DNA from: Botryllus schlosseri
Taxonomy: Eukaryota
Length of the DNA: 64,000 nucleotides
Direction: 5' to 3'
Assembly (NCBI GenBank): GCA_051294905.1
Contig: CM119372.1
Location: forward strand, 22,446,001-22,510,000
The notes beneath the pieces were generated by a model. That model was not told the DNA's origin and did no database searches. It worked only from the letters and a program-made list of their open reading frames with translations. Shown in pieces: positions 631 to 63,437 of this stretch (position 1 is the first letter of the stretch; every line of letters starts with the position of its first letter). The translations under genes were made by a program, and so were the position numbers.

Positions 631-1526
631 TCGCATTCCCATATCAATCCTATCATTTTCATCCCATGATGCGGACGAATGCTTATGCTGCCGAAAATAG
701 ATACCTCCTAGGATGCATCAATATGAATCAAGCTCTGCACTTTTCGCATAGCTCAATTTGCAGCTTTTGACAATCTATCCTATGCGAACGAATTACGATC
801 GTTTTCACAACTACTTACTTGAGTATATTTAAACTGAATCAATTCTACTTCTACTTCAAGTAGTTTTAAGATGCTTTTAAAAGGAATACTTCTACTCGTA
901 CTTGAGTAGATTCTTGCGTCGCTACTTCTACTTCTACTTGAGTAGCTTTCTTGACTACTTTGACCACATCTGTATATCCAACATTGTACTATCCAATTCC
1001 GGCGGCAAATTTCGACATTTTGAAATGGCAAAACATAGTATCCCAGTCATGGTGGAAGGGAAAGTGATGTTTTTTCGCACGTTTGAATATGGAGATGGGC
1101 CTATCTGATAGGCACTATCATAGACTTTGGACGAAGACATTGCCAATAAAAAATGAGACATTGATAAGTGTCGCAGCCAGAGGACTGGCGCGATAGCAAT
1201 CGTCGAATTCAGCTGGCCCCGGTTCTTTTGGCTCCTAGCTTTAGTGAAGGGGTCACCAACACGCGGCCCACGGGCCATATACGGCCCGCCAGGTATTATT
1301 TTTTGTCCCGTGACCTCGTTTCGGATTTTGTAAACTATGTATGATTATTGTGTCTTCTGATAGCTTGAAATACTATATTTCAAAAATCCGAATCGTTATC
1401 GCAAATATTTATCCCACGCTTCCAATATTACCCTTTTTCGCTATAAAATGTCGTTGACGTTACTAACAGCGTGCTCGCAAAATACGACAAGCCGGTGAGA
1501 CTATATCCAACTGCAACTCGCGCGAC

Positions 1527-4319
1527 ATGGAAATCATTCCATTTGTCATTTCGGCAAAAATCAGTGACCACAACCATATTGGTTTTCTATCACAAGAACA
1601 ACAAAGGACGCCCCCTGAAACATATCACCTCTGCAGACGACGAGAGTTAGTGGACGAAGAAGCGCTCGATGATGCCGCATTCAATCAATTTAAAACATCA
1701 GCCATCCCCCACATCTCGATAAACAACTTTGACGAAAAATTTGTAGAGTTTATGTCTGCTATCAAATCACTGCTGGAACAATTTGCACCTCTACAGCGCC
1801 TTTCGAGAAGTCAAAGAAAATTGAAGCGAAATCCGTGGATGACCACAAAGCTGATTCAACTTATCCGTAAACGTAACCGGTGGCATAACCGATTAGACAC
1901 CAAGAACTGCCCAGAACATGAACGAGAAAGATTTCGACGTTTCAGGAATCGCACCGTGCATCTCATTTCCAAGGCAAAAGCAAAGTACAATGAGAGATTT
2001 TTCAACAGACACATAAAGGACACTCGAAAAACATGGTCAGGACTTAACTCTCTCCTACATCAAAAAAAGGCCATAAGTCTGTTTCGGAAATTGTGAATTC
2101 GGATACCGGAAACAAACTTTCAGACCCGGCGGCCATCGCGAATCACTTCAATGAATATTTTTGTAACGTAGGCCCAAATATTGCTTCTTCTATTACAAAA
2201 CCTGTGTCGGCCAGGTCAGAGGTGAGATCGATATCCCAGTCAATTGTGCTTGAACCTACGACCAAATACGAAGTAGAAGTAGCCATCCACAAACTGAAAT
2301 CGCACAAGGCCGACGGCTATGACCAAATCCCATCATGGTTTTTAAAAATGATAAGCATGCATATCGGTCAATATATGGCCCATTTTTTCAACTTCATGAT
2401 AGAAAATGGAGTCTACCCAAGCTATCTAAAAAAAGCCAGAGTAGTCCCTGTACACAAAGCTGGGGATAGAAGTAATGTCACCAACTACCGTCCGATATCC
2501 GTTCTCCCATGCATCGGGGTTGTATTCGAAAAGTTGCTCCTCTCCCGCCTGTCCTCATTCCTCGCCAAAATGTCTGTCATTTCCCCTCAACAATTTGGCT
2601 TCCGAAACAAACACCAAACCGCACATGCCCTCCTAACAGTGGCCGAACAGTATTATGATATCTCAGAGAAGCGAAATGTGGGATGTAGCATTTTTCTCGA
2701 TCTAAAAAAAGCGTTTGACTGCGTGGATCATAAAATTCTCATCTCGAAATTGGCGCGCTACGGACTTCGGGGCCCACAACTTGAGCTCATGAAAAGTTAC
2801 CTCACTGGACGCCAACAAATGGTTGCGATCTCAGACACCTTGTCCTCTCCTCACCTGGTGACCTGTGGTGTGCCCCAAGGCTCAGTACTTGGACCAGTCC
2901 TTTTCACCCTATATGTCAACGACATTTTTGAAACCTCTTCATTGAACACCACACTTTTCGCTGATGATACTCACCTCCTCTCTTCAGCATCTTCGACGGC
3001 AGAGCTGGATGCCCTGACTGGTGACCAAATGCCCAAAGTCCATGAGTGGACGGCCCAGAACAACCTCTGCATAAACGCCTCGAAATCGCAATTGCTGACA
3101 GTAAATTCAAAAAATAACCTAACCGTTAATATTGCTGGTCAGCCCGTTTCCAACACAGATAATGCCAAATATCTCGGGGTTTTACTGGACTCGAACATGT
3201 CCTGGAAGAGTCATATTCAGTCCCTAGAAACTAAATTATTAGCGAAGTGCGGCCTGTTCTACAGCCTTAGGCGCTTCATGCCAGCATGGGTTCTTCTGAT
3301 ACTCTTTAAATCCTTAATCCAATCGAAGTTACACTATGGCATCCTCTGTTGGGGGGCTGCCAGTAAAACTGCACTCAAGCCACTGCAAAAACTACAACAT
3401 AAAGTACTCCGAATCATAGCTAGGGCTGGGCACAATGATTCGAGTACTCGAATCTGAATCGAGTAGTAATTTTAATGATTCGAGTCGAGTAGTAAAAGAC
3501 GATTTTTTCGAGTACTGAAATTATACGGTCCTCGCAACTGAAAGTTAATTTACTGACGAGAATTAAAGTTTTGATACTATTTTCCACTGAGGAAGCCTTG
3601 GAATCTCGATTGGCCGTGTCTCAGAATATCAGGCACATTACAAAGCTACGAACGTTACTGGAAAAAACACATTTCCGAAGTCATGATCATCCCATAACAT
3701 TGTTAGGAAGTGTAATGAAATCGGTATGGTCTAAAAAATACCAACGTATCTTTAATGTGACGGACAACAGGCATTACGTTCTTTGTGGTCGCATAAAAGG
3801 TACATATTTGGACTTCGACCTAGTACATTCTGTTGTGACGTCATAATGAGTGATACTCGATTACTCGACTCGACTCGAAGCATATTACGTGATTCAGAAT
3901 CGAATCACTCAGGTACTCGATTTTGCCCAGCCCTAATCATAGCTAGGGCCCCAAAGGGGCCTGGCTGCCCATCCAACAAGTCGCTGCTGAAGAGATTCGG
4001 CGTCCTAAACATAGAAGATATGCGGAAACTAGAAATCGCCAAGTTTATGTATCAGTTCCACTGCGGTCGTTGCCCCGAATATTTCAATGACTTCTTTACC
4101 TCGGAATCAAAAGCGCACAAGTACAACACACGCGCGTCCACGTCGTCCAAATATCATATGATCGACCGAAAAGATCATCGCTCTATCAAATATGCCGGAC
4201 CTGATGTGTGGAACAGTATCCCGCCGGCCATCCGACAGTCGACGAGCATGTCCACATTCAAGTCGAAATACAAGCAATTACTACTAAATCCATCCTCAAG
4301 ATTACCGGACCACGACTGA
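1527..4319 (+). pseudogene. LINE ORF2 (endonuclease end + reverse transcriptase), frameshifted near 2061-2095 and split by a MITE at 3421-3935
   Basis: RT motifs NYRPISVL, QFGFR, FLDLKKAFDCVDH, GVPQGSVLGP, LFADDT, KYLGV; removing the MITE and one TSD rejoins LRIIA-RAPKG in frame to the stop at 4319. Confidence 0.92.
3421..3935. mobile_element. hAT MITE (TAGGGCTGGGCA TIR, ACTCGA-rich subtermini)
   Basis: TIR tagggctgggca / tgcccagcccta; perfect 8-bp TSD atcatagc (3413-3420, 3936-3943); sister copy at 27492-28026. Confidence 0.93.
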
Positions 4320-9746: not shown

Positions 9747-11643
9747 CAGGACTGAAACAGCACTTCGTCAGTCCCCCCAAAAAAAGTTGGTCTTCGGCCC
9801 ACATAAGGTGATAAACCAAACCTCAGGGGGCTTCCAGACTTCCCATAACGCTATGCGTTTTTCCCGCTACTTATCAGTGGGATTAGTTGTACTGTTTAGC
9901 GAGACAGCTTGTTCCGCTTAAGCGCGCGAAGCGCGAAAACTTTCTTTAATCCAGTGGTTCCCAACCTTTTTCGACTCATCGCCCCCTATTGAAGCTCCAC
10001 ACCGATCATCGCCCCCCAAATATTGGGAACCGAAAGATGGGCATACAAACTTGGGTCACCGGCGAGTGGACTAATAAAAAAAGGTCAACTTTCCGGCTCG
10101 ACCTCGAAATTACACTTTTACAGCTAAATTTTCGTGAGTTGACTAGAAAAAGGCTATTTCTCCGACTTGACTCCCATCAGGACCGTAACAGCACTTCGTC
10201 AGCCCCCCCTCAATAAAAACGTTGGTCTTGGGCCCCCATAGGGAGATAAACCAAACCTCAAACCCCTCAGCCAGTGGGCTTTACGTCGCTACATATCGGC
10301 TATACCCTAAGGCGCCTATGGACAATTAAACACTTACATATGTACATATATTTCGGAGTTCTCGGTCAGCACAAGAGCATTCTTTTTCGGCCAAGTTTTT
10401 CTCGCTACTGATCGTCCTGGCACACTTCTTTGCATGTTACATGACCTATAACTTCATATGTCTTGGTGCGTCGTGGCGCAGTAATGGCCGACGCCGGAGT
10501 CTCCATTTCCACAAATCATGCGTATTTTTGTTGAGGGAAGGGTAGCGTACCCCAAAATCAAGATATATGACAATATGAAATCGCGCGCAGCACGAAAATT
10601 TTTTGTGAAAGTTGCATGAATTTCTAAAATATTTTATGTTAATTCACGAAATAATTTTAGGCTCTCTTCGAGTTCGGTCCAACAATTGGGGGTTTGGGGT
10701 GCAGCAGTTACGGTCCAGACTCCAATATAGCCGTTTTATCGCGAAATCGCCCCCCTATCGCCCCCTTCGTTGTTTTCGCCCCCTTCGTCCGTTTTCGCCC
10801 CCCCTATCACCCCCTTCGGTATTTTCGCCCCCCTAGACAGCTAAATCGCCCCCTGGGGGCGATATCGCCCACGTTGGGAACCACTGATTTAATCCATGAT
10901 TGAATCGATCAATATAACCGGGAATTACATATATATTGCAATCAATTTTTATCCTCTCTCTCTTGGAAAATGTAGGACTCGTAAATAATAAATTAAACTT
11001 ATTCGGGCGGACCCGTTGGTTTACTGACTTCGTTTTATGATGTTATTTCGTGACCTCCTGTCTGTTAACCAAAAGATATATTGAAATCGTCCAAAAGTAC
11101 CTAACTAACAGACGCACACGATTTCATATTGGTACTTATTCACTGGAAAATTATCTTTCTCTGCGGGTGGCATTTGTCAGGCGGGGTTTCGATTGCCTGG
11201 ACAGGAACATTCGGCGCCAGCCATTTAGGCGCCAATGGACACTCAAACATATCGAAGTTTACGATCGGCATAAGGGCAGTCATTATTGGCCAAGGTTTTC
11301 TTGCTGCCGCTCGTCTGACACACTTCTCGGAGTCGCATGTTACGTGAGCTAGAACTTCATATCTCTTGGTGCGTCGTGGCGCGGTAATGGCCGACGTCGA
11401 AATGCCCATTTCTATAAATCATGCGTATTTCTTCTTGGGAGAAGGGTATGCCGAAGAATCAAGAGTCAAGACACTCGGCAACATTAAACCGCGCAAATCG
11501 TGAAAAAAATTTCAATAAGTTGCATGATTTTCAAACAAACGCTATATAATTTACGCTAATTCACGAAATAATTTTGGCCCCCCTTTGAGCTCGCCCCCCC
11601 CCTCACCCCGATTGGGGATTTGGATGCGGCAGTTACGGTTCTG
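9747..11643 (+). mobile_element. hAT MITE family A (CAGGACCGTAAC TIR) with nested insertions
   Basis: TSD ctaattat / ctaactat; contains 9952-10886 (CAGTGGTTCCCAAC TIR, TSD ctttaatc / atttaatc), which contains a family-A copy at 10178-10718 (TSD actcccat / actccaat). Confidence 0.85.
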
Positions 11644-12353
11644 CTAACTATGCTTCTGCTTTCAGGCCATCAAGCTATGTATAACCTACCAGGCAAAGTT
11701 CCGGCCTACCAGGTGTTTCCACCGTCACTACGACTTCATAAAAAGGCATCAAGACTGGGCAGGACATGTCGGATTTGACTCAGTACGATCGCTCTATTTC
11801 TAGCATAGTCGTCACGATTCGTTGAACTATTTGGGAACATATGAAGTATCGTTGCTCTCAGTGTCAGGGCATAATAATGAAACTATTATGCCGATGTGCT
11901 GCGTGAAAGATTTAATCCAGCCCGCCGAGATACACCTCGTTTGGTGTAACCTATAACGATTAACACCGACACCCCGATTACGAAACATGACACTACTACG
12001 GCATGGGCACTTGGGCAGTGATCACAGATTCAAGCCAGGGACAAATTATAACTTTGTATTAACAACGTTACGAGACATCAGATGCCTAATGATATTCATA
12101 GCACAAGCTACACGATGACATATTTTATGAATATATAATTATGGTTAATGGTTATGTCCATCATATCAATATAAGTGGCCGTTGTTTAAATACCCTGTTA
12201 CTGTTACTTGTTCCCACCCACTAATGAATTTGAATACTCCTGATGTATATTTTATTTCAATTGGGAGCATTGATGAGCAATTGTTCCTAATTTTCGCCCA
12301 TCAGATGCTATATATTGATTAAAGAACGAACACAAAATGAAGAGCCGAGGTTG

Positions 12354-13425
12354 CTAGGATGTGGCTTCTCCCGTGGTCCGGCGTTGTGCTGCCTCGACTC
12401 CTCGCTGGTATAATAATTGGTTAATATTGCTCTTATCCATCTGATAACTGGCCCTCGACGATTCTAGTGTCCTGGCGACTCCCAAAGCAAAGGAGAATAG
12501 AAGCTTGTATTTTCCAGTGCTGAACTTGATTACTTCTTCGGGACCTACAAGCCCTATGTAGTGACCCGTTTCGCCGAGAGAATCCAAGTAGTGTTTGAGA
12601 GAGATAAGACATGCACGCTCGGCTTTGTAAATGTCATCCTCCACCTCCTTGTAACTGCCATCCAGTATGTGCCTCACCGTGAGCAGAAAGTCCGTAATAC
12701 CATTGTTCTTGCATAACTCGGCGCCCTCCAGTATTGTCGATCGAACTCCATTCTCGCAGATCTTCAGAGTGGCCATTTTATTAAACATATGAACGATGAC
12801 TTTTCGCCCATCGCGAGAGTCCGATAGAAACGATCTCACCAAGTGCCTCTTCTGCCATAGCAGCAGCACCACTGATGTCGTTAGACTCGTGTTTGCGTGT
12901 AATCAACCGTCGGATTTCATTCGCCCGTGCTTCCACGGGTGATGAGGTACAGTTGAGGCAGATGATGATTTGCATCCATAACATCTTAATCAGTTTAAAT
13001 CCCAATGGGCGTTCATCGTACGGCACTTTGAAGACCTTACCCTTCATTGCTGTTATTGCGTCGACGAATACTCGTTCCTCTGCGGTTTCTCTGGCACTCG
13101 TGAGCCTTGGGCCGTCGACTAGTCTTGGTTCCACATCCACTTCATATATCTCGAGACAATTCTCTTTAGATAGTGCCCGCAAATACTCTCGCGGCTCTTC
13201 TGTGATGGCTAGCGTCAAGTACACAAGACATCCTAGGCGCAGACTGCCTGGTGCGCGATCACAGCAGATTACTTCGATGCAATCGGAAAACAAAAGACTT
13301 CGCTGACGCTCGCTCTCGCCAATTACATGTGGCACGTGACAAACCGTCTTCAGCGACGGTTTTTCATGATAATCTCTTCGCTTCGGTTCTTCATCAAGGT
13401 TCAGATTGGACATAGCCTTATTCAT
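12354..13425 (-). pseudogene. N: Endogenous viral element: paramyxovirus-like (Mononegavirales) nucleocapsid protein N core, one +1 frameshift at about 12831-12840
   Basis: Intronless; KFSTGKYKLLFSFALGVA fits the F-X4-Y-X3-phi-S-phi-A-M/L-G signature of paramyxovirus N; also NGITDFLLTVR (cf. measles AGLASFILTIK), LGETGHY (cf. MGETAPY), LWMQIII, NEIRRL and an N-terminal VCHVP...GCLVYLTLAITEEP block, in the expected order (comparison from memory). Confidence 0.82.
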
Positions 13426-13602
13426 ATCGGTTGTTTGTGACTGTAAGCTCAAAAATGACGCTCAAACCAACCAAACGATAGGGCCTACACAGCAGTAACC
13501 TATAAACGACTGCATTGATATTTGTAAAACTTCAATGTGTACTGTAGCTTTTAGTGAAACAATCAAAAACAAAAAAGACCATAGACGTATACGGTCGTAG
13601 AC

Positions 13603-14717
13603 TAGGCTTACCATATTTTCGTGACACAAATTCCGGAGAATCGTTAACGCCTCCTAGCGGGTTACAAAAGGAGGTATGAACACATATGAAGTCACACCGA
13701 CAATGCTTCGTCTGTCAATTGCATACAGGGGTCGATTTTATAACATAGGTCGTGAATTCACTGACTATTGGGCCATCTTGAATTTGAGCTTCATGTTAAT
13801 TGTAGGGTTGGTATTCTAATTTGGTCTGCAACAGACTTCTTCTCGGGCCGGATGGAATTGTGATGTGGGCAAGTACCGATTTACAAATGAGTACCACACG
13901 ATTGCGTGACTGGATTCTGTCAATAATATTGGTTCGTCCGCGTATCACTATAAAATCTTTACCCTCTCTCAGTCCACCTGATCAAAGTTAGCTGTAAAGC
14001 TGGTGAAGATGACTTTGAAAATGCAAGGACGGTATATTTGTACGTCGCTAAGTCATGTTCATATCACACGGATAGGTCTATTTATGAGCCGAAATGCCGG
14101 CCCGCACCGGCAGGTTGCACATCCGGTGGTTTCCAACCTTTTACGGTCGCGACTCCATTTCCAATTTGAAAATGTTTCGTTGCCCACCTTAAAATTCGGT
14201 AAACTGATTACTAAACCAATGGTAAGTACCGTTGCCCACACTTACTCACGGCCTGTGTTGGAAGCTGATCAAGTCCAACAACTCCGCGATCTCCAGAAAA
14301 GGGTGAACGACCCCAAGCCGAAGAACCCCTATGTTCGACTACAGCATCCAAACGGCTTTACCGACACTATGAATACATGGTTCTCTTAAAATTGCGATTG
14401 CCATTATAGTCCTATTACAGTAAAGATAGTTATTTTAATTTATGTTTTTTTGTAGTTTTTGCGATAAAGGGTTACACCCACATTATAGTCAATAAAAGTC
14501 ACACTAAATATTTAAAAAAAGAAATTTCAAGTAGCATAAATCTTACCAAAACGAGATATTGTTTATGTTGATTAACGAAAAAAAATTTCAGCTCGCGATT
14601 CCTTCAATCCTTCAAAATTCCGGACATTTGGGCATATTTCAGCATTACCGCCCGTACGCGGTTTAAACTGTGAAATTCCGGACATGACCGGGAAATTCCG
14701 GAGATATGGCAACGCCA
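13603..14717. mobile_element. Composite hAT MITE (TAGGGTTACCATA family)
   Basis: TIR taggcttaccata / tatggcaacgcca; TSD tcgtagac / tcatagac; collinear with 7979-9098. Confidence 0.82.
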
Positions 14718-17593
14718 TCATAGACGCACTCTGTATTTTCATTCTGAGGGGGCAAGGGCTCCTTGCTCGCCCTCTGGCTAAGGCAGTGTGCAAGGTTCTG
14801 CTATCATTGCTGCATGTATGCGACAGTATCACTGGCATCATAATTTCACAGTATAGCTCTTATCCACCAGCTGTCTTGTAAAATGAGTATATACAATAGA
14901 TTAACAGATTGCAAGAAATTGAATCGAGAACACTAGTCGTATCGTAAAATCATCATGATTGGCAACAAGGAATCCGACCCATAGTAAATGCACAAATACC
15001 GAGGCAAGCGACAAGGGTGACCCTATACCACCTCAAGGTTGAATTTGCAATTATCCACGATTAGCTCGAGTCGGTGTCGGTATGACATAGCCAGGATTCG
15101 TGATGCCTATTATGTTATAATCCTGTCGGATCTCGCTCCACTTGGACCAATTCTGCGATTCAGGATCACCTGGATGTATCGCTTTCCACGACTACCCCGT
15201 CACCCCTTGTTCTGAGACCACTCAATGTCTCGCCGGTAATTGTTGCAGTACCTCTGGGGCAACGAATAGAAACAAAACTGAATATTAGCCTTACTAATTA
15301 AAATTGCGGTTAAACGACAGCATATACAAACTTCACTCAACAATGCACTCTTCAACTAAAGGCGCTACTTTCGAGAAATCCGTAATCGTATTGCACCACA
15401 GACGATGGGGTGAGATGTCATAATTAGCCCCTGCTTTGAAATAATTGAATGGCTAGCATCGACAATTCGACATCCATCAGTTTGCGCTAATCGGCCGTAT
15501 GCGAGAACTCGAGTCGTATTTTTGAATGACTTGGCTTGGAACAGTCGGTGAAAAGACCGAATTCTGATCTGACGAGTTGTGCTGAAGTCTCGACCTGACC
15601 AGGAGCTGGTGGCTGGCCATGACCATGACCATGGTGCTATTCGTATTGTCAGTCATAGGCTATTAGGGCGGTCGACATCAACATCTACGCCCAGTGACTA
15701 TAAAATGTTTTAATTACCATCTGTAGACTAAAGTAGATGTTTGTCTGTTTGATCGACAGACTTTCGCCGTACGTCGTTATACCAAGTAATCGTATTTCAT
15801 CCTTGTGTCGTAATCTTGTGGTGTTTTGAGTTGACAGAAATATTATTATATGTATGAATTGGTCTAGCAATTTATTAATTAACACTTAACTTGATCAATT
15901 ACCACTTATTGCCTGAGTGCATCTACCACACGAGCTGTGCGGTGTGAATATCAAAAATGTTACTGTCTAATAAGAAAGAACGACAAAGCGCCAAAACGTG
16001 AAACAACATCCTGTGATCAAGTGCTAATGTTAAAATAGCCTAGTTATCAAGCGCACTTGCGCAAAAATGAACGTATAACAGAGCGACTCAACAGAAGAGC
16101 TATTGCGTAACTTATAATCATTTCGAATCATCTACAATATTGCGCAACTCTGTACCACATATTCACTGACGAAGGGTTTTTAATTCTTATCATCAATTCA
16201 GCATGTTTCATGGCTACAGTAACTTTTCAGAAATGTATACTTCTCGAATGACAATCTTAAATTGTTTTTTTTATCAAAAATTGTAGAATTCTGCCATAAT
16301 TGGGTAAATACTTTCGAAAAACCTGTATTATGAACATACAGACGATTTGCACCTTATATGGTCAACGTATATACAATATAGAATGAATAGAACTCTCGAA
16401 ATCGTCGTCGGTTTAACAGATCATTGGTATAGTCGGTAAGGAATGGATGTTGTGATGATGATGACCGCCGACCGTAAAAATGCTGCATAACGATGTAGTC
16501 CTGGTTAAAGATATTTTTTCTGTTGGGGTCGGAAGCCTTTTGCGTCAAAGGAGCAATATTTATTATTTACCCTATTTTTCAATTGTAAATGTCAATCCAT
16601 TGTGACGTTATTCGTGGCGATATTGATCTACAACTCATTCATCTAGCGGCAGATTCGAGAACCCGTTGTACTGCACTGTGGGTTGGATAAGGGGTCTTCA
16701 TAAGCCATTTAGTCGTCTATCAATGCTACTCGCGGGAGTTGATATAACTGGATCACGAAAACGAAGAATATATCACGACAACATTTCTATGGGGCACGGC
16801 TCAAATCAGCCAAGTTTCTTGCCCTCAGACGAAGAAGATAATGGGCGTATTAATTTCCCCACAAGTCATAGTATATTTTATCAGCCTTGGTGCAATGGCG
16901 CTACGTCCACAGATATGACAGAAAGGACAATATTAGCACATCCGCATTTATCACCGTACATGACTTGGGCTGCACGACATGATTTGTTGAGATGACAGCT
17001 GATAAGCACGCCTGCCTTCTAATCGCAAACTATAGTCAATGATTGCTTTCTTTTAGGTAGGCCTATGGGGTGACCTCGATGCCACAGATATAAGCTAGAG
17101 TGCAAAGGAACACTGATGCAGTTTGAATGCGGTGGCTTTTAAGGAAAATGGTTGCTGCCAAAAAAATTTCACACTAATTCTCCTTAATTTTTGACCACAT
17201 CATATTTAGAGCGCATATGCCGCTTTAATGCTAATAGCATTTTTGCCTGTAATTATTCAGAATCCCGTTTTATGATTGTGTGTTCCACAGGAAAGGAGGT
17301 AATTTCAGTTTCAAGGCATTTGAAGTCAAACTAACTGTACTTTGGAAGCATAGAACTTGCTTAGTTTGCGGTCCTGGGCATGTATGACTGTGAATTTCGG
17401 AAATACCGTCTCAGCAAGTTTTGGGTAATTCATCCATCCATGCATGACTGATAAATAAAGTCACTGCCTCTAGATATGAGTCAATTACAATTATTATCTT
17501 TGTGTCAAAGTCGTGTACAAAATAGCGTAATAATTATCACAACGTTAGCCAGTCAATAAGTTATTGTATACGAACTAAATACACTGGTTCATT

Positions 17594-19367: not shown

Positions 19368-22300
19368 CTACACAGGGCCCAATTCTTCGTGTAACTCATT
19401 CAACTCCCTGACCTCATTAGCAGCACCGGGCTTCCAAATAGGCTTTGTTGAGGAGTGCTGGCGTTTCGTCATGTCCTTCGCAAACAGTGCCGTGCGAAGA
19501 GAGTTTCTGGGACCGCCCGACTTTTTCGTGAGCGGTATTTCTTGTTCTCGCTTGCCGACCGCTTCCCTTTCCTTGACCGGGCAAAATCGCCTGGCAGCGG
19601 GCAAGAGAAACATGGTCACGGCGGAGACCATGAACATACCGCCTCCGACGTAAAACGCTACTTGGTAAGATTGAGTGGCGTCGAATATGAGACCGGCCAC
19701 CACGGGACCGACGACCATACCTAAAGAAAAAACGTGTTAAAAATACAAGGGGCACCAAATTTGGTTGATCGACAGTTGAGCTATTGAATATGCGACATAA
19801 TGAAAAACGACAGTGGAGTATGCGACACTTTGCCATGAGACGCTTGAGCATGTGACTTCATAACGCCAACCCTAACCTCAAAATTAATCCTTACCCAGAC
19901 CCTAAACCCTAATTTAATCATAACCAGACCCTCATGCTATCTTTAACCCACACGCTGAAGCGTCACATGCTATTATGTCCAGAGGTGGTTAAAGTAATCA
20001 TCGTTTATACTCAAGCATAACATCGTAAATTTCTATCCAAGTACAAATTGAAGTATTCTCGGCCTAGCTTTGCCCAAAAACTGGAAACTGTTAAAAGTAG
20101 AAGTGGAAGAAGTATAAAGAAACTAACACTTGAGTATGCGGTGCAAGTATCCAAAACCTACTTTTATCTGAAAAAAATAGAAGTATACTTCGTCACTGAC
20201 CACCTCTGCTATTATTGTAACGGGTGAATAACTGCAGTCACGTGCCGGGGTTTTCCCCGCACATGTTTTCGGTGACGGTCCCGGGAAATGGGCGGTTCTC
20301 GAAGTATTGTCTTTAATTTGTTTATATTATTTTCGTTTAGAGCGAGTTAAATATTGTTAACCGTTCAATAAATGCTATAAAAGTATGATGACTACTGGAA
20401 GAGCGACGTGTTAGCAACAAGACCGCTGAAGAAGAATTATATTAATGTAACAGTCCGCAGACCGCAACCGACTTCAATTATATAAGATAAAGTAACTGTT
20501 ACAATTATGTCATTATGTCGCATGCTCATTCGGCGAAGCACGAAAAAAGAGAGGGCAGAAAAGATATACCTAGAGCCAGCATCACGTTGATGTAGCCCCA
20601 AACGTGTCGACCTTTCTCCAACCCGAACAGTTGCATAGTCGTCGCGAACATCAGCGAATTCAGGATCCCGGCGTTCACGCCGATGGCTGTAAACAAAACA
20701 CGCGCCACGTCACGAAACGCGACGAAATCGATGATAAGGGCGCCGAATCGATACCTATCGCGTATATGTACATGGTCGCCAGACTTTGCCCTTGCGGCGC
20801 CAGAATGTTAGCGATACCCATCAGCACTCCGCTTACAGCGTAGACGTAAGACAGCCCGAAAGGTAGTCTGTCTGCCACTGTAGCGCACAGCAAACGACCC
20901 AGAAACTCCGAAATACCGTACGCCGTCATGACTATAGCGCCACTCTGCGTGTCGATACCGATAGTGCCCATGTAGTCGATCTGTAAATAACATACCTGAT
21001 CGGTATTACGCAGTCGGAATCGCATGTCAGCGGTAACTTACTAAAAATATAAGCGGGAACAGAAAAGAAACGCTCCAGAACAAAGTGCCGAGCATCCACA
21101 GTATAAACGAGAAATCGGAGCACACAGAACAGTCGTACATGCGTTTGTCGAAGACGTTCTTCTTGATCTCTTGCGCCGCGAGGCTGATCTTGCTCTCCGT
21201 GCAGTTTTGGAGAGATTCGTTGATTGCGTGCTTGTCCACTGCGAGGAAAGAGGGCATTGTCGGGTTGTCGGCGTCAGATGTGGTCAACGTTGTTGACGTT
21301 GCTACTGGGGTAGAAGCAGAAGTAACGCCGTGCATTTCTACTCCGTTACAAGGAGAATTAGCAAGTAGTCTAAACTACTTCAAGTAGATGTAGAAAACTA
21401 ATCAAGTAAGTAGTTTCAAAAAATACATTCAGCCGACGGGTCGCATACTTCAAGCGGTTAATCGAAGGCGGACCTGGACACTTTCCAATTAGCAAGACGC
21501 GCCTTCGCGACCAACACAAAAGACTATATTGCCTAAGTTTTTGTTGCACTAAAATCGTGAGAAGGTTGCACTCAATTTTAAAAAAGTTGCAGTGAAATGT
21601 TGTATTTATAATGAGATACTCGAAAGTTGTATAACCTAACAGTTTAAGATTTGCCTGTTCCATTTCTTGCTTGGCTATACTCAATCGATCATGATAAACA
21701 TCACTGTACTTTAGGTTTGTAACCCACGTGACAGCATGTCGCTGTCAACTTTGGTACTTTCCCGTTTCACAAACGGTCACAGGCGAGGCAGCCGAAAATT
21801 ACGTTTTTTGCCGGTACGGAGCAAGAAAATAACACAATGCGGAATTAAATACCCGCAAAAAGTCAAACAACAAAGCGATAATTTCCCCCTCCCTTCCCCC
21901 AAACAAGTCAAATACCACACACAAACCCCATAGGTCTGAAAGCTCGACCCACTGCAGCAAAACTCAGTGTTGGCGACTTTAACAAAATCAATAGCTTGAA
22001 AAAAGGTAACCTAGTTAAAATGTAATTGTCGACGGTCTCGCCGCGTCGTCCATAAAATGAAACTAACTCAAATTTAAACGACAGAGATTTAATTAGGCGA
22101 TCAATTTACATATAGTTCGAGCCCTGTCGTGCTTGGTTGGCGCTGTTGAACATCGAGCTTACCAGCCATTGCGTCATATATAACATTGAGAAGCAGCACA
22201 AAGCTCTTTGTTATGCAAATAAAAGAGAATAAAACCGCACTTGAAGTAGTTTTATAGCATGTTATTTAAAACACTCCTATACATTTTGCGCATCACTTGA

Positions 22301-25300: not shown

Positions 25301-28300
25301 TGAACGTGATCATTACTGTTTCAACGGGATTTAGTACGTTACGAGGATCAGGATTATAGAATGCTTACATTCTATAGTCAGATTGTTATTACGAGATTTT
25401 ATTACCTAACTTTCAGCAATCTGTCCTCAGTGCCGGGAGCTAAGGATGAAAGGCTTGAGAGGCAACTCTCGAATATGCACTTTATGACCTTAACGCGAAC
25501 CGATCGCATATCTTCCACTGTGAACAAGAACAGCTTATTTCTCAAGTCAAAAGTGTTTTACAGCGCCCGCCCACCAACTTTACACGGCCGATTCACCGAT
25601 GCATTATATTATCATATTTGTAGAGTGCCGAAATGCTGCGCTGGCGCTACGATACCCACGGGTGTCATAATAGGATGATGTTTGTTGGTCGTTCATGCTT
25701 TCACAAATACTGAGGGAATTTCCGCCAGGCCCATGTGCTTATTTCATTAAATTCCAGTAATGCTGACTTATTGCACAGTACGGCTTAGTGCTAGGCTAAG
25801 GCAGAAAAGAGAAGTCTAGAATTTATATACCGGTGGATCTCTGTGGTAGGGTTATTTACTGCGTTTCCATGCACGGCCGACGGACCCATTTTCGAGAGAG
25901 TCGGCCGACGAACAGGAGAATTTTTGTTGCGCAGCACACCAACGTCGCCCGACTTGTCGGCCATCGAGTGAATAATTCGGCTAGGTCGTTCCGCCATCCT
26001 TGCGCTGTATCTTCGACCAGCTGATTGCTATGTGTTACTTACAATACACTTTTCATATCAAATTAACGATGGCTGACGCTCCGGACGGATCTTAGACGCA
26101 TTGAGAAACCAGGAATTTAATTATGATTGCAACGGAAGAACGGAAGTTAGTAGTACCGGACTACCGGTAATGCTGTGAATCAGCCCTAGGCTACTGAAAT
26201 CTTCTTCGTGATCTGCTCATATACGCTGCTACCACATTTCGAGGGTTTGTGTTCTGTTACATGGACAAAAACTACGGTTTGACCACAAACTAGGTGAACT
26301 TATTCACATTTCCCTGGTAAGCAAGTCATAAACAAGACACTTGGTAGTCCACGTCTGAATCACGACGACGAAACAGTAGTAGCGGTAGACTAGACAAAAA
26401 GTTCCTAGTCTGCGCTCGAAATGATCGGGCCGCGTCATTCCATATCTTGTAATCTATATCGCCCACATACTAAGATATAGCACCTAATTTTCATCTTTTT
26501 TCCATCTTATTTTATCTTCTGTTAGTTTTAAGCAAAGTGGTTCATCATGACCATTTTATATGTTGGATTTAAGCCTACGTGTTCCAGGTCAAAGCGGGTT
26601 GTTTGATTGAATGACCGCTACAAGTCGTATCGGCTCATTCCTACCGAGTCATTTTATCGCAATCTCGTGATGATTATGAAATTATTAGTAAGCAAGCCAA
26701 AAACGTCATCGCGAATGTTTCGCCCACCTAGTTCGGCCAAGTCACGGTCGGATTACGCCTGATCATGGAAACACGGCCGGCACGTGTACAACGCATGCGC
26801 CATGGCCTTTCGGCCGTCCGTCGGCCGCACATGGAAACGAAGTAATTGTGTCGTGAGTGTCGACTGCAATTGGTGCGGCCAAGCAATTCATATTTCTCTA
26901 ACACAGTTATACGATACTCACAGTCCCTATTGGAGCCCAACGCCCGCTCCAGCACTTGATCCCTGTTTTTCGGCGACGCGTGCTTTACTTTCGTGGCTAC
27001 TTTTTGTTCCGGAGTCTTGATGGGACGGAACGCACAAATGCAGATCAGTCCGACCACGAGCACCATTCCGGATAGGATACGATACGTGTTCCGCCAGCCC
27101 ACCTCGTTGACCATATATTCGGAGAAGGGATTCATCAATAATGTACCTTTGCAATAATACAAGATGTTTTCACAATCACTATATCTCACGCGTCATGTAG
27201 GCTGCTATTCGGGAGGAAATGTTACTAGACGCGTGACTAACATGTCAATAAGAAAGTGCTGAGCGTGATGAACACGGCGCGAATGGCAATAATGCTTACG
27301 CGACATCATGAGGTTCAGGCCTGAATCACAATGGACCCTCCCTTCCGTTACGAGGGTCGCATTGTTCAAAGATCACGGCTGTCATGTGCTAAGACGACTT
27401 GTTCCAACATGTTCAACTAATGCATTGTATTATATATGCACGATAAGCGGTTAACAAGTGACTGTTTGTGTTGTGTTTGCTGCATAACCAATAGGGCTGG
27501 GCAAATCGAGTTCCTGAGTGATTCGATTCTGAATCACGTAATATGCTTCGAGTCGAGTCGAGTAATCGAGTATCACTCATTATGGCGTCATAACAGAATG
27601 TAATACTTCAAAGTTCAATTGTGTACCGTTTATGCCATTATAGAGATTGTGTATCTCTATAATGCCACCACGAAGAATATAATGCCAGTTATCCATCTCA
27701 TAAAAGATACTTAGATATTTTTTGGACGCGACCGACTTCATTTCACTTGGTGACAGTTGTGGAATAATCGTGACATCGGAAATGTGCTACGTCCAGTAAC
27801 CTTCGTAGGTTTGTACCATATGTTTCGTAAGCTACGATACCGCCAATTAAGGTTTCAAGGCTTCATCAGTGAAAATTAGTATCGAAAAATAAATTTCTCG
27901 TTGATAAATTAACTTTCAGTGGTTAATTTTAGTACTCGAAAAAATCGTCTTTTATTACTCGACTCGGATCATTAACATAAATACTCGATTCAGATTCGAG
28001 TACTCAAATCATTATGCCCAGCCCTAATAACCAATAACCAATGCTGTGTAGTTCAATTGACACCATCAGTAACAACATACAAGGAATAAAATATCATACG
28101 ATATTTTCATAGGCCTAGATTATGCCAATGTTACGAATTGATAGAGTATTGTATTCTTCGCCTTTATTAAATGAGCTAACTGGCGGACACGATTGATTTC
28201 CAAAACACTTGATTAATGATACGGGCATATATTTATTGAAGGAATTGAGATTTCCGCACCGTTACTGATGGGTTGCGTTCCCAAACCCTACGGTTTCTTG

Positions 28301-38500: not shown

Positions 38501-41500
38501 GCGGTATTATCCGGCATATTTCTTACAAATGTTGAGATTTTTTGTACGAAATTTCATCATCACATTATCCCTCAAGATAGCAAAAGACGATTATATGTGC
38601 AATTGTTCATAGGTCCATTATGAGCACCCGACAGTGGTGTTGTGGTTTCACTCTAGTCACCATCAGCAAGAAAAAGGCTTCATTTGCGTCCAATTCCGAG
38701 AATGCAAAAAATGCACACTCAATTTAGAGTTTTACGGAAAATGGACCAAAATGAAGTTATTCACAGCACTGAAACCGCCATAGTGAGAAACCGGTATTTG
38801 CAGGCTACATGGAGAATATAATTGTTACACAAAAATAGAATTCAAATATCTGTGGACGCACTTCCAATTTCGCTTATGACTTAACAGAACCTGCATACGT
38901 AGAAGCCAGAATCGCGATATAATAGTAATGAGCCAACTTCAATATATCTCTCGTATTCTTCATCGCATACAGATGAGGTATATCGTCCTTGAAACTACTC
39001 TTTTCGCAGTTTATATTACCATATGTAACCAGCCATATACTTGATTTAGGTGATTCCATTGTTCGCTAATAAACGTGTTAGGGCGATTTTTTTTGACATG
39101 TCAAAAAAAGTCAAAATTAGGTCAAAATTGTAGCGTTAGGTCAAAATTTGTCAAAATTGTTTACAAAGTCAAACATGTTTTGACCTCTGCATTTCGTTTG
39201 TATCGTAGATATTGCGCTGTCAAAAATTTGACGTCTGCATTTTGTTTGTATCGTAGATTTATCACTGTCGGTGAATTTATCATTTGATATTTTACAGCTT
39301 GTAGCCTACTTTATAGGCCTACCGTTGTAAACGGCCCATCGGCTGCTCATTGTGAATCATAAACGGTCAAATGAAACAAATAGTGACATGGTTTTATCGT
39401 CAACGTAACGCAATATCCTCACTGAAGCAATACTGCTTGGACATTGCATGGTTCTTATATCAAGAAGCGCAAGCTGAAAAATTGTGATATAGACAACATT
39501 GTCAGAATGAAGCAACACGGTGTGTCACCAGCAGTGTGCACACAACTTCAGTGTTGTCAGTCAACAACTGCTGCTGTTGAACGTTCTTTCTCCATTCTGG
39601 GCAAGATACTTAGTAAGGACAGACACATTCTACCCGAGAATGTAGGAAAGCATCTTTCGTTGTACTACAACAAATTTCAATTATTTCCACCATAATACGT
39701 AATGTAACTACTGGAATTCTTCATAGGGCCAGATTTCGTTAAAATACTAGTTTTTTCATGTAAAAATTTGTCAGTTTTTGAGCCAAAAACGTTTTTTCAG
39801 GCCAATCTACTTTGTAAGGACAGACAGTTCCAACCAGAAATGAAGATAAGAAGTATAATTTTAACATTATGTGCGTAAATGAAAATTTAGATTTTTTAGG
39901 TCAAAATCTTCCGTTTTTTTGGTATAAAAATCGCCTTAGTTATAATGTAATATATAATTGTGTAGGCCTAATAATTTAGTATTCAAGCAAAAAACAAGGG
40001 TATGGAATTTCAATCATTTGAATGGTCCGGCCCGCGAGCCATAAGAGGGTTTGAATCCGGCACGCGACACAATTCGAGTTTGACACCCCTGCAGTACAGT
40101 GTGTAATGAGAAAATTAGTACGATGCATCTCTGTATTAGTGGCTGAATCATACACAAGAGCAACACTTCGATTGTTTTATCTACATTTTAATTATACAGA
40201 AAGGGATGCATGTCATGTTCGAATTATTCATACATATTAGGTTATTAGAGAGTCCATGTTACGAAAACTGATGAAATATGAAAAAATGAAGGAAATTTAG
40301 AAAGGCAATACTTCATGCATAGTGAATAATTCGAGCTGTGCCACAATGAAACAATTTTGCATGCCATTGTTATTCATATGTTTGCATATGTTTAATGGTT
40401 ATATGATAGTCAGCACCGTAACTGCCGCACCCCAAACCACCCAATTGGGGGGGGGCGAGCTCGAAGGAGGCCCAAAATTATTTCGTGAATTAGCATAAAT
40501 CATAGAGTATTTTTTGAAAATTTATGCAATTTTTTCAAAATTCAAGCTGCTATTTATCTTTATCATTGGCTATTGGGCCATTACCGCGCCACGACTCACC
40601 AAGAAATACAATCAAGTTTTAGGCCATATAACATGCGACTCCAAGACAGTGTTGGGATCAAGTCACTACCTTCGAGTCATCTCGAGTCATTGCAGATTTT
40701 TACACGAGTCAAGTCAAGTCACTCGATTTTCTCGTGACTCGAGTCAAGTCAAGTCACCCGATTTTTGGAGGTGACTCGAGTCAAGTCGAGTCAATTCAAG
40801 TCACGAGTCAAGTCACTAGTCGAGTCAAGTTGAATTTTCAAAGTACGATGTATGATTCAAGGTCATTGCATTTTGCTAACTGTTTTGAATACAGATGGAG
40901 TCCCCATTTATTCTGAATCAAGGAACGAATAAAGAGTTGATTATGCACGCAAGATGGCGCTCTATCGCTCATGCATACGTAGAACTGCCAAACTGCGCAA
41001 GTACAGCGGTATAGCTTCAGTCTATAATAGGGGCGAGAAAACTGCGACTCGCGAGACGCATGCTGCTATTTGAGTCTTTGATTGCGGCTCTACAATGAGT
41101 GTGCAATGTGCATTCAGTGATAATGAACGTAAGCCACTGTGCGGTGCCTTTTCCGTCAAGATTCGCCCAATAATCACAAAGCTAGAATTGAAACGTCATT
41201 ACGAAACCAAACACCAATTTACCCAAAGTATTATGATTAATGAGCTCCGCACTATCAGTCCGATTTCAAACACCTTGAAGCCTAGATGGAGATGCAGCGT
41301 CTTATACCACACAATAATAAACTTCTTTCGATACCCTACCGGTGTTGGGATGACTCGAGTCACCTTTTTCGTATGACTTGACTTGACTCGAGTCACTTTG
41401 CTAAAATGACTTGACTTGACTTGACTCGGCGTATCAGAAATGCGGATTGACTCGTGACTCGGAGCAAAATTCACGAGTCAATTTCAAGTCATCAAGCAAT

Positions 41501-62375: not shown

Positions 62376-63437
62376 ATGAAAGGAGATCAGTGGAGGATTA
62401 TGGAATTGCTGGAGTTGTTGGAATTTACTGACGATGATGATGAACAGTACAGACTGCCAAGAAAGTATCTCGCAGATGTTCAGAACCCCTTCGAAAGGTA
62501 TTCGAACAACGAGTTCAGACTGCGATTCCGGTTTTCAAAAGACGCAACTCACTATCTTTTTGGGCTGTTGAAAGATGATGAAGAATTGACCTGCAGAGAT
62601 CATGCTCTTCCGCCAATACTACAACTAACTTGCGCCTTACGGTTTTTCGCGGATGGCCATTTTCAACAGACTGATGGTGACCTAGCTGGTATAAGCAAAG
62701 TAACTGCTCACAGAAGCATTCACAAAATTACCCGTGCCATATGCCGCAAGAAGCTCCTGTTTTTGAATTTTCCTACTGACCTCGATAAAGTAAAGCAAGA
62801 ATTTTATGACATTGCAGGCTTCCCAAACGTTGTTGGAGCAATCGATTGTACTCATCTACCCATAATATCCCCTGGCGGTGATAATGCAGAGGTGTTCCGG
62901 AACAGAAAAGGTTATTTTTCATTGAACGTTCAAATGATATGTGATGCACAGCGAGTCGTAACAAACATTGTCACACGTTGGTATGGATCTTGTCACGATT
63001 CAAGAATCTTTGACAATTCGGTGATCCGTGATCGATTCGAAGATAATCAAATCGATGGATATTTGCTTGGGGATAATGGATATCCACTGAGGAGCTACTT
63101 ACTTACACCACTATTATCACCAAGAACATCGGCCGAAAAAAAGTATAATCACGCTCATATTGTAACCCGCTCTCGCATAGAGCAGTGCTTTGGCATGCTG
63201 AAAAAAAGATTTTTCGCCTTAGCTATACCGATGAGGACCAAGCTCAGCAATTCCACGAATATCGTCGTGGCCATAACCTGCCTTCATAATCTGGCAATTC
63301 GGACACGACAGATGACTGATGAAACGGAAGTTGATGACGTATTCGAACCAGATGCTTCAGACCACCCTCATGTCGCATCGACTCCTTCTGGACAATCCGA
63401 GCGACAAAGCATAATTTTGAGACACTTTTCAAACTAA
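62376..63437 (+). CDS. Harbinger / HARBI1-like DDE transposase, 353 aa, uninterrupted
   Basis: FRLRFRFS, LRFFADG, GAIDCTH, RNRKGYFSLNVQ, GSCHDSRI, LLGDNGYPL, YNHAH..TRSRIEQCFGMLKKRF, LHN. Confidence 0.95.
   Translation: MKGDQWRIMELLELLEFTDDDDEQYRLPRKYLADVQNPFERYSNNEFRLRFRFSKDATHYLFGLLKDDEELTCRDHALPPILQLTCALRFFADGHFQQTDGDLAGISKVTAHRSIHKITRAICRKKLLFLNFPTDLDKVKQEFYDIAGFPNVVGAIDCTHLPIISPGGDNAEVFRNRKGYFSLNVQMICDAQRVVTNIVTRWYGSCHDSRIFDNSVIRDRFEDNQIDGYLLGDNGYPLRSYLLTPLLSPRTSAEKKYNHAHIVTRSRIEQCFGMLKKRFFALAIPMRTKLSNSTNIVVAITCLHNLAIRTRQMTDETEVDDVFEPDASDHPHVASTPSGQSERQSIILRHFSN

Follow-up and report, generated by a model that had tools for sequence, protein, structure and literature searches.

An endogenous paramyxovirus-type nucleoprotein gene in a sea squirt: a viral element in a new host group

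How did a gene resembling the nucleoprotein (N) gene of measles virus come to lie in a chromosome of a sea squirt, and is it a fossil or a living gene? To our knowledge, the family to which the measles and mumps viruses belong has so far been seen in vertebrate hosts only. A preliminary description of the locus proposed that the N mRNA of a paramyxovirus-related, negative-strand RNA virus had been copied into the germline of a non-vertebrate chordate, leaving either a fossil or a co-opted gene. The DNA analysed here, referred to below as the window, is a stretch of 64,000 nucleotides (C2:22446001-22510000) in an assembly of 495.5 Mb and 219 contigs. According to the analysis, the endogenous viral element is genuine and its host group is new; co-option of this element by the host is plausible and unproven.

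Reading frames and protein family

The whole N-like coding region lies on the minus strand at 12354..13425. Two overlapping, intronless open reading frames had been described there, which together would make a protein of about 356 amino acids, and both stop-to-stop reading and read-through translation confirm this arrangement: the minus strand carries stop-to-stop frames of 226 aa (12781..13461) and 182 aa (12354..12902) that overlap by around 120 bases. The upstream frame comprises 198 codons (12832..13425, minus strand) and, judging from its alignment to an intact relative designated P0002 (discussed below), corresponds to the N-terminal lobe of the N core. Its first ATG is found at 13425, with a second ATG at 13413 aligning with the start of P0002. 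The downstream frame (12354..12830, minus strand) comprises 158 codons plus a stop codon at 12354-12356 and corresponds to the C-terminal lobe of the N core; the Pfam and PDB sequence matches fall in this part. The frame changes near 12831 on the same strand. In the alignment to P0002, the upstream frame keeps step with the relative as far as about 12832 and the downstream frame takes over at about 12830, and at the break point two P0002 residues stand opposite one stray window base, leaving the window five letters short. When joined with an X at the frame change, the two frames give a protein of 356 residues (P0025) that contains no stop, and the intronless gene is colinear with N from end to end. 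The join in P0025 was made by coding GGTG as X, which switches frame 13 codons before the true break, these 13 residues being those of the downstream frame; no four-letter word closer to the break is unique in frame.

The preliminary description had named the Pfam profile Paramyxo_ncap (PF00973; profile length 524, curated gathering cut-off 27 bits) as the yardstick for its proposal, and the window protein matches that profile above the cut-off. Taken by itself, the downstream frame reaches 36.8 bits (E 3e-9, profile positions 263-376) and the read-through protein P0025 scores 37.3 bits (E 2.2e-9, profile positions 172-376). PF00973 was the only family matched: no other Pfam family was hit by the N-like frames of the window at E values up to 10. 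Searching PDB sequences with the downstream frame (phmmer) gave a similar picture, with 14 of the 18 matches listed being nucleoproteins at E values of 6.1e-12 to 6.4e-7. By title, these entries are the N proteins of mumps, Nipah, PIV5, measles, cetacean morbillivirus, Hendra and Newcastle disease viruses; the other four matches listed are cellodextrin phosphorylases at E about 0.7 and represent noise. The upstream frame alone has no match in Pfam or PDB, and its homology is therefore visible solely via the intact relatives.

All of the short strings quoted in the preliminary description (KFSTGKYKLLFSFALGVARTLESS, INQLLYQRGVE, NGITDFLLTVR, LGETGHY, NEIRRL and LWMQIII) are found in the two frames. 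The central conserved N motif (F-x4-Y-x3-hydrophobic-S-hydrophobic-A-M-G), checked against the consensus of 20 aligned N proteins, is located at 12480..12524 on the minus strand and reads F-x4-Y-x3-F-S-F-A-L-G; the family consensus in the same columns is FAPGNYPLLWSFAMG. Leu replaces Met in this motif, and a second N copy in the same genome (the C10 copy, see below) has Ile at that position. A Lys residue that is nearly invariant across the aligned N proteins, and which we take to be an RNA contact in measles N, is replaced by Cys in the window copy and in P0002 and is retained as Lys in the C10 copy.

In classical paramyxoviruses, the N protein possesses a disordered C-terminal tail that recruits the phosphoprotein. 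This long tail is absent here, the window protein ending at profile position 376 of 524, just past the N core. A tail is not universal in paramyxovirus N, however, as two exogenous fish paramyxoviruses have N proteins of 372 and 385 aa.

To examine the fold, AlphaFold2 models were made from a 20-row alignment for the two intact relatives, P0002 (pLDDT 81.6, pTM 0.79) and the C10 copy (pLDDT 77.9, pTM 0.76), and not for the broken window copy. The alignment rows included paramyxovirus N, and the models therefore lean on that family. In the comparison with the measles and PIV5 N core that had been suggested, both intact relatives are predicted to adopt the two-lobed helical N-core fold. Foldseek searches of the PDB matched the Nipah, mumps, measles and PIV5 N structures over about 350 columns with TM scores of 0.70-0.79; when Sendai and NDV N are also counted, the matches cover 340-370 columns at 1e-13 to 1e-15, with TM scores of 0.66-0.79. 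Filovirus NP comes next at ~2e-7 and metapneumovirus N at ~8e-7. In BFVD, 12 of the 13 best matches are N proteins of paramyxoviruses or of Sunshine Coast virus (the match at rank 9 is nameless) and the best mutual fit is to the N protein of Wenling tonguesole paramyxovirus (TM 0.80/0.76). The window gene encodes a complete two-lobed, short-type N core of about 356 aa without the disordered tail.

Profile, sequence, fold and tree (see below) agree that the protein belongs, as had been proposed, to paramyxovirus N rather than to any cellular family, and we are as good as certain that it represents a real paramyxo-lineage element. The label 'paramyxovirus lineage' rests on the profile, on the ranking of the predicted folds and on an outgroup-free, unrooted tree with long branches.

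Relatives, host chromosome and other viral sequences

Six-frame searches of the genome with the protein, the Pfam family and the paralogue located N-like sequence at two places only, the window and C10:331193-332245. The search for paralogues that had been suggested thus brought to light one further N copy, and an intact one. This C10 copy (P0001) is an uninterrupted frame of 351 codons, 30-33% identical to the window copy. It scores 34.1 bits against PF00973, compared with 27.6 bits for P0002, and matches a solved nucleocapsid chain with an E value of 3.9e-13; in a phmmer search of the PDB, N proteins alone appear at meaningful E-values. The closest relative of the window copy is P0002, an intact protein of 365 aa encoded on a public contig of 2771 bases, which shares 64% identity with the upstream frame and 66-67% with the window copy overall. 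P0002 may stem from another integration event, or may even belong to a free virus; open frames would then reflect selection in viruses and not in the host.

With the C10 copy as query, phmmer run exhaustively against 1.84 billion representatives produced 22 matches at E up to 0.001, of which 19 were looked up (P0015, P0019 and P0023 were left out). Sixteen of the 19 are paramyxovirus N by source name, and these include the N proteins of Wenling hoplichthys paramyxovirus (372 aa) and Wenling tonguesole paramyxovirus (385 aa). One is an 'Uncharacterized protein' of 374 aa from the frog Hyperolius riggenbachi (P0003), whilst the remaining two are Logan proteins, namely P0002 and a 71-aa fragment (P0012). 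Among the 1.84 billion representatives, this exhaustive scan found no N of a free virus similar enough (near-identical) to point to a recent donor. Word-indexed protein searches returned nothing for the C10 copy and P0002 only for the upstream frame and for P0002 itself, so that these searches yielded neither further close relatives nor an open allele. A search of viral and metagenome contig sets with P0002 found no relative, and the ESM Atlas gave no usable match to the C10 copy.

A maximum-likelihood tree was built from 21 rows, with the fragments P0012, P0015 and P0019 left out, no outgroup, and a midpoint root for drawing only. The window copy pairs with P0002 (support 99/99) and the C10 copy joins this pair (96/93). 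A further branch (95/98) has the window copy, P0002, the C10 copy, the frog protein and the two Wenling viruses on one side and 15 classical paramyxovirus N proteins on the other; long branches meet in this tree, making the deeper joins unsure. What the tree contributes to the phylogeny envisaged in the preliminary description is that the sea-squirt copies group together, off classical paramyxovirus N, in an unrooted topology.

On its chromosome, the N gene sits in 2.3 kb of unique DNA (11669-14006) flanked by high-copy repeats, whose depths run into the thousands in every sequencing run. The gene has a G+C content of 48% compared with 40-41% in the flanks, and the C10 copy displays the same contrast. 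When the 83 window frames of at least 85 aa were compared with Pfam, no other viral genes were found beside the N gene. Reverse-transcriptase genes occur within the window (a reverse transcriptase is matched at 2048-3454), and Pfam further identifies a hAT fragment (39426-39692) and a PIF/Harbinger-type transposase (62376-63434) together with three matches below the cut-off, namely DUF4771 (1467-2093) and two MFS-transporter exons on the minus strand (19371-19736 and 26731-27192). That the host is a non-vertebrate chordate, as had been surmised, is borne out by the presence of GH6 cellulase-type exons in the genome (C9). We know of GH6 among animals in tunicate cellulose synthase only.

At least 20 run rows from 8 studies hold all or part of the stretch, and 8 rows contain half or more of its words. 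The gene is found 22.4 Mb inside a chromosome-scale contig, is surrounded by host repeats and genes and recurs across 8 studies, so that a free virus fused to host sequence during assembly is excluded. The proposal of germline integration therefore stands, resting on the host chromosome and on independent samples. The mRNA origin proposed along with it, and with it a route by way of a retrotransposon, has no signature at the locus: no A-run that could be a poly(A) remnant is seen past the 3' end, and in place of a target-site duplication there are just repeats of 10-12 nt around the locus, which is chance level. Age could have erased marks of both kinds.

Two further ideas about the history of the copies were tried and set aside. 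The first was segmental duplication, but blastn shows the window and the C10 locus to share one high-copy repeat, located on opposite sides of the two genes. The second was that runs labelled organisms B and C might contain diverged orthologues; these gave short contigs 99-100% like the window only, and hence no date.

N is not the only mononegavirus gene represented in this genome. The polymerase (L) profile PF00946 matches 11 times at a total of six places. Five of these are on C3, and the sixth is on C10, 2.6 Mb from the C10 N copy. Several of the L fragments carry many stops. Two L-fragment frames were translated, and both have QGDNQ at the catalytic motif; compared with solved L polymerases, their best E values are 4e-41 and 4e-22, with VSV L at 8.5e-6. 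We take the top entries among these matches to be paramyxovirus L, those near 1e-18 to be Ebola L and those at 1e-12 to 1e-10 to be pneumovirus L. In the ESM Atlas, one L fragment matched generic negative-strand polymerase clusters only. Profiles for the matrix (M) and fusion (F) proteins and for mRNA capping found no match in the genome, a weak result given that the same profiles are silent in control genomes too.

Transcription and the fate of the gene

Signs of transcription come from two sequencing runs. Run X6, the kind of which is guessed to be RNA, provides contigs covering 12244-12732 and 12704-13342 at a depth of 9-11, with zero depth on the unique flanks at 11669-12169 and 14842-15500, both of which are thinly covered by run X17, itself guessed to be DNA. 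In raw reads from RNA run X23 (about 6% of the run), depth across 12337-12503 is 6.3 with the first mate on the plus strand versus 1.3. Under the usual stranded protocol, this orientation would indicate minus-strand RNA, sense to the gene, the library type being assumed and the reads few. X23 reads across position 12486 have A>C in four out of four cases, as does the X6 contig; the change falls at a third codon position and is synonymous. None of the run rows listed as holding the stretch is on record as RNA. We consider it likely that the gene is transcribed from the minus strand. A transcribed 3' untranslated stretch is placed at 12244..12353 on that strand, the X6 contig 12244-12732 stopping at 12244, and the transcript may well be polyadenylated at a host-type AATAAA signal, which can be read from the sequence at 12251..12256 (minus strand), 7 bases before the contig end.

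Run X6 also bears on the nature of the frame break. The contig covering 12704-13342, from another sample with the same organism label, has 644 letters on these 639 positions, with 2 differing letters and, somewhere along these positions, 5 gaps relative to the window. This excess of 5 letters equals the shortfall of the window against P0002, and the break is for this reason perhaps confined to one allele, or an assembly slip. On balance we lean towards the existence of an open allele in the species; the frame change would then be a property of one allele, with other individuals carrying an open frame. The frameshifted reference allele, whether segregating or fixed, argues for relaxed constraint.

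How surprising are the open frames? Of all the single substitutions possible in these frames, approximately 4.4% introduce a stop. If the window copy and P0002 had diverged neutrally after one integration, then their 34% protein divergence would be expected to include ~9 stop-creating changes, the probability of seeing none being ~1e-4. For the window copy and the C10 copy, with 69% divergence, the corresponding figures are ~25 stop-creating changes and a probability of ~1e-11. These expectations imply that the copies either entered separately and recently as diverged viruses or were kept open in the host. In favour of upkeep by the host are the presence of the locus in the runs of 8 studies, the single and possibly allelic lesion, the lesion-free C10 copy and the failure of the exhaustive scan to find a near-identical N from a free virus; against it are the frameshifted reference allele, the lost Lys and the decayed L fragments that point to repeated integrations. 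Judged from these comparisons of sequence, the chance that selection has maintained the window gene as a host gene falls just short of even. Should such selection have acted, then a decoy mechanism, suggested by analogy, would be as good a guess as its contrary: as its likeliest role, the kept gene might supply a decoy nucleoprotein, which would enter the nucleocapsids of related viruses or starve them.

In the account that we prefer, sea squirts would have been infected by an undescribed negative-strand RNA virus from the paramyxovirus lineage, its N mRNA would have been reverse-transcribed and inserted into germline DNA by a host retroelement, and the resulting gene, transcribed and polyadenylated by the host and carrying its frame change on one allele, may have been kept as a decoy. 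A retroelement-mediated route from viral mRNA has been described for mononegavirus elements in the available sections of two published accounts (PMC11089739, PMC4964890). Taken as a whole, this account is the best explanation that we can offer, and the case for and against it is evenly poised.

The strongest competitor to this account accepts the insertion as a real paramyxo-lineage N but denies it a function: the window copy, the C10 copy and P0002 would be separate, fairly recent integrations, the window copy would be decaying and its transcription would be incidental. The frameshift in the window copy fits well with such neutrality, as does the loss of the near-invariant Lys in the lineage of the window copy and P0002. 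Identities among the three copies run from 31 to 67%, as would be expected if they came from different viruses, the L fragments at six places, several of them stop-laden, look like repeated integration followed by decay, and RNA depth is low. What this explanation handles less well is the scarcity of damage. A neutral frame of 1.07 kb would be disabled after slight divergence (4.4% of substitutions creating stops, with indels extra), yet the window copy has one lesion, which may be allelic, and the C10 copy none. Furthermore, recent entry is at odds with there being no near-identical donor N among 1.84 billion representatives. We regard a neutral fossil as a serious possibility, if one that we would not quite back at evens.

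A different kind of function is conceivable at the level of RNA, with the locus serving as the source of a small (piRNA-type) or non-coding RNA directed against related viruses and its coding capacity being irrelevant. The signs of transcription at the locus would suit such a role, to which a frameshifted allele would be harmless, and piRNA-producing bornavirus-like N elements are described for rodents and primates in the portion of PMC4964890 available. However, the few RNA reads run mostly in one direction, that of sense mRNA under the usual library type, and open frames of 351-365 codons in three diverged copies are left unexplained, making this reading distinctly improbable.

Finally, that the gene is not in the germline at all, being a free virus or contaminant misjoined to host DNA, has in its favour that none of the contig pieces listed runs the full length of the 5-kb stretch or bridges the 5' end of the gene to a host repeat, but its probability is close to negligible: a negative-strand RNA virus should not occur in DNA runs, whereas four listed run rows guessed as DNA hold 87-98% of the stretch's words and a contig of run X17 (guessed DNA) bridges 12139-12410, and the gene has no P, M, F or L as a neighbour and is frameshifted in the assembly, deep within a chromosome-scale contig.

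The preferred account can be extended to a small domesticated family of paramyxovirus-type N genes in sea squirts, made up of the window gene with its open and broken alleles, the intact equivalent of that gene from a second species, and a paralogue on another chromosome that is older and also intact. Expressed as tail-less N cores, the members of this family would interfere with nucleocapsid assembly in circulating relatives. We put this forward tentatively and think it rather unlikely to be correct in full. If it were true, then together with the L fragments it would mean that viruses whose N and L are of true paramyxovirus type infected chordates that predate the vertebrates or lie outside them.

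A germline copy constitutes hard evidence that the host lineage was infected, evidence of a kind that virus reads from a filter-feeder cannot give. As evidence of infection, the copy bears on the origin of the family of measles, mumps and Nipah viruses, and on whether this family arose with the vertebrates or earlier. With its open frames and signs of transcription, the gene is also a candidate through which virus-derived immunity could be tested in an invertebrate chordate.

Comparison with known elements and viruses

Endogenous paramyxovirus-derived elements are already known, and the novelty of the sea-squirt gene lies in its host group, the tunicates. The first reports of elements of this type date from 2024 and concern teleosts, amphibians and a shark, according to the available text of two papers (PMC11521997, PMC11089739). 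As described in that text, the vertebrate elements resemble those found here in being solitary N- or L-like insertions, with N and L predominant and with some long open frames (PMC11521997, PMC11089739). The frog protein P0003 is the same kind of thing. The differences are that all hosts reported in the available text are vertebrates, whereas the host here is a tunicate, and that the N proteins of the window copy and its paralogue are of a short type (about 350 aa). In the tree, the window copy and its paralogue are set apart from the 15 classical paramyxovirus N proteins (95/98). Full-text searches of openly accessible main texts, and a term search within PMC2987831, turned up no report of a paramyxovirus-like element in a tunicate or any other invertebrate.

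A second comparison is with endogenous bornavirus-like N (EBLN) elements. In the sections available of PMC4964890, a ground-squirrel EBLN is described as being built into viral ribonucleoproteins as they assemble and as inhibiting Borna disease virus. Like the sea-squirt gene, EBLNs are mononegavirus N genes copied into the germline, and some are described in those sections as open and transcribed, with a proposed dominant-negative or piRNA role (PMC4964890). Unlike it, they derive from a different virus family and reside in vertebrate hosts, and a comparable role for the sea-squirt gene is suggested by analogy only.

Among exogenous viruses, the N proteins of the Wenling hoplichthys and Wenling tonguesole paramyxoviruses come closest to the sea-squirt copies, being of similar length, ending just past the N core and falling on the same side of the tree. 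These viruses differ from the sea-squirt copies in being exogenous and in having fish hosts, and their N proteins are 16-20% identical to the sea-squirt copies, with which they group on long branches.

The final comparison is with an exogenous tunicate-associated virus that, in the available text of a preprint (10.1101/2024.12.15.628590), is placed at the base of Paramyxoviridae and Pneumoviridae. By description, the N protein of this virus is similar to Borna- and Paramyxoviridae N via HHpred, whereas the genomic copies found here match paramyxovirus N directly by HMMER; likewise, its polymerase motif is given in that text as GDD, as against QGDNQ in the L fragments of the sea-squirt genome. 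What the virus and the germline copies have in common is the host group, and the virus, as portrayed in the same text, offers an independent hint that relatives of the paramyxoviruses infect tunicates (10.1101/2024.12.15.628590).

Two nucleoprotein genes and their repeat surroundings

The paramyxovirus-like nucleoprotein (N) gene in the window is accompanied by a second copy on another contig of the host assembly (G000), C10, where an intact 351-codon frame occupies the plus strand at C10:331193-332245 (L005:1501-2556). The identity between the two copies is only 30-33%. High-copy repeats flank the window gene at 10500-11668 and 14007-14841 and are covered thousands of times over in each of the four sequencing runs mapped; another lies at the C10 locus (L005:1-801). 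One repeat family is common to both loci, where it sits downstream of the gene in the window and upstream of the one on C10.

About 40 bases 3' of the stop codon of the C10 copy lies an A-rich run, AGAGAAAAAA, which may be what is left of a viral gene end or may have arisen by chance. On the minus strand at 13435-13450, 15 bases 5' of the window gene's ATG, a pyrimidine-rich stretch ending in AG is a candidate acceptor for spliced-leader trans-splicing. A 168-amino acid open frame runs antisense to the N gene (plus strand, 12800-13306); it has no family match and is probably a by-product of coding-strand composition.

Polymerase fragments

Fragments of mononegavirus L polymerase (loci L008-L017) are found at six places in G000, five on contig C3 (6.70, 7.78, 8.51, 8.83 and 9.21 Mb) and one on C10 (2.97 Mb). 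Compared with solved structures, the L fragments gave top matches at 4e-41, and the motif QGDNQ could be read in both of the two fragments translated. Several of the six places carry many stops. The C3 fragments at 7.78 and 8.51 Mb share an identical stop pattern, and thus look like a duplicated segment.

Mobile elements and host genes

Retroelement remains are present at window 1467-4316, among them a 469-amino acid frame in which a reverse-transcriptase domain is recognised (E 3.9e-35); further open frames lie next to it. The window also contains a 353-amino acid PIF/Harbinger-type DDE transposase frame (62376-63434) and a hAT dimerisation-domain fragment (39426-39692). Upstream of the viral element and on the same (minus) strand, two exons (19371-19857 and 26731-27192) weakly match the Major Facilitator Superfamily and perhaps represent transporter genes in tandem. 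Elsewhere, GH6 cellulase-type exons at two loci close to each other on contig C9 (L018 and L019, 15.03 and 15.07 Mb) suggest that two genes like tunicate cellulose synthase are arranged there in tandem.

A relative in a frog

The 374-amino acid protein P0003 from the frog Hyperolius riggenbachi is a short paramyxovirus-type N (Pfam Paramyxo_ncap, PF00973, E 2e-10), whose gene is annotated as 'uncharacterized protein' with several isoforms. P0003 agrees with the amphibian elements mentioned in PMC11089739.
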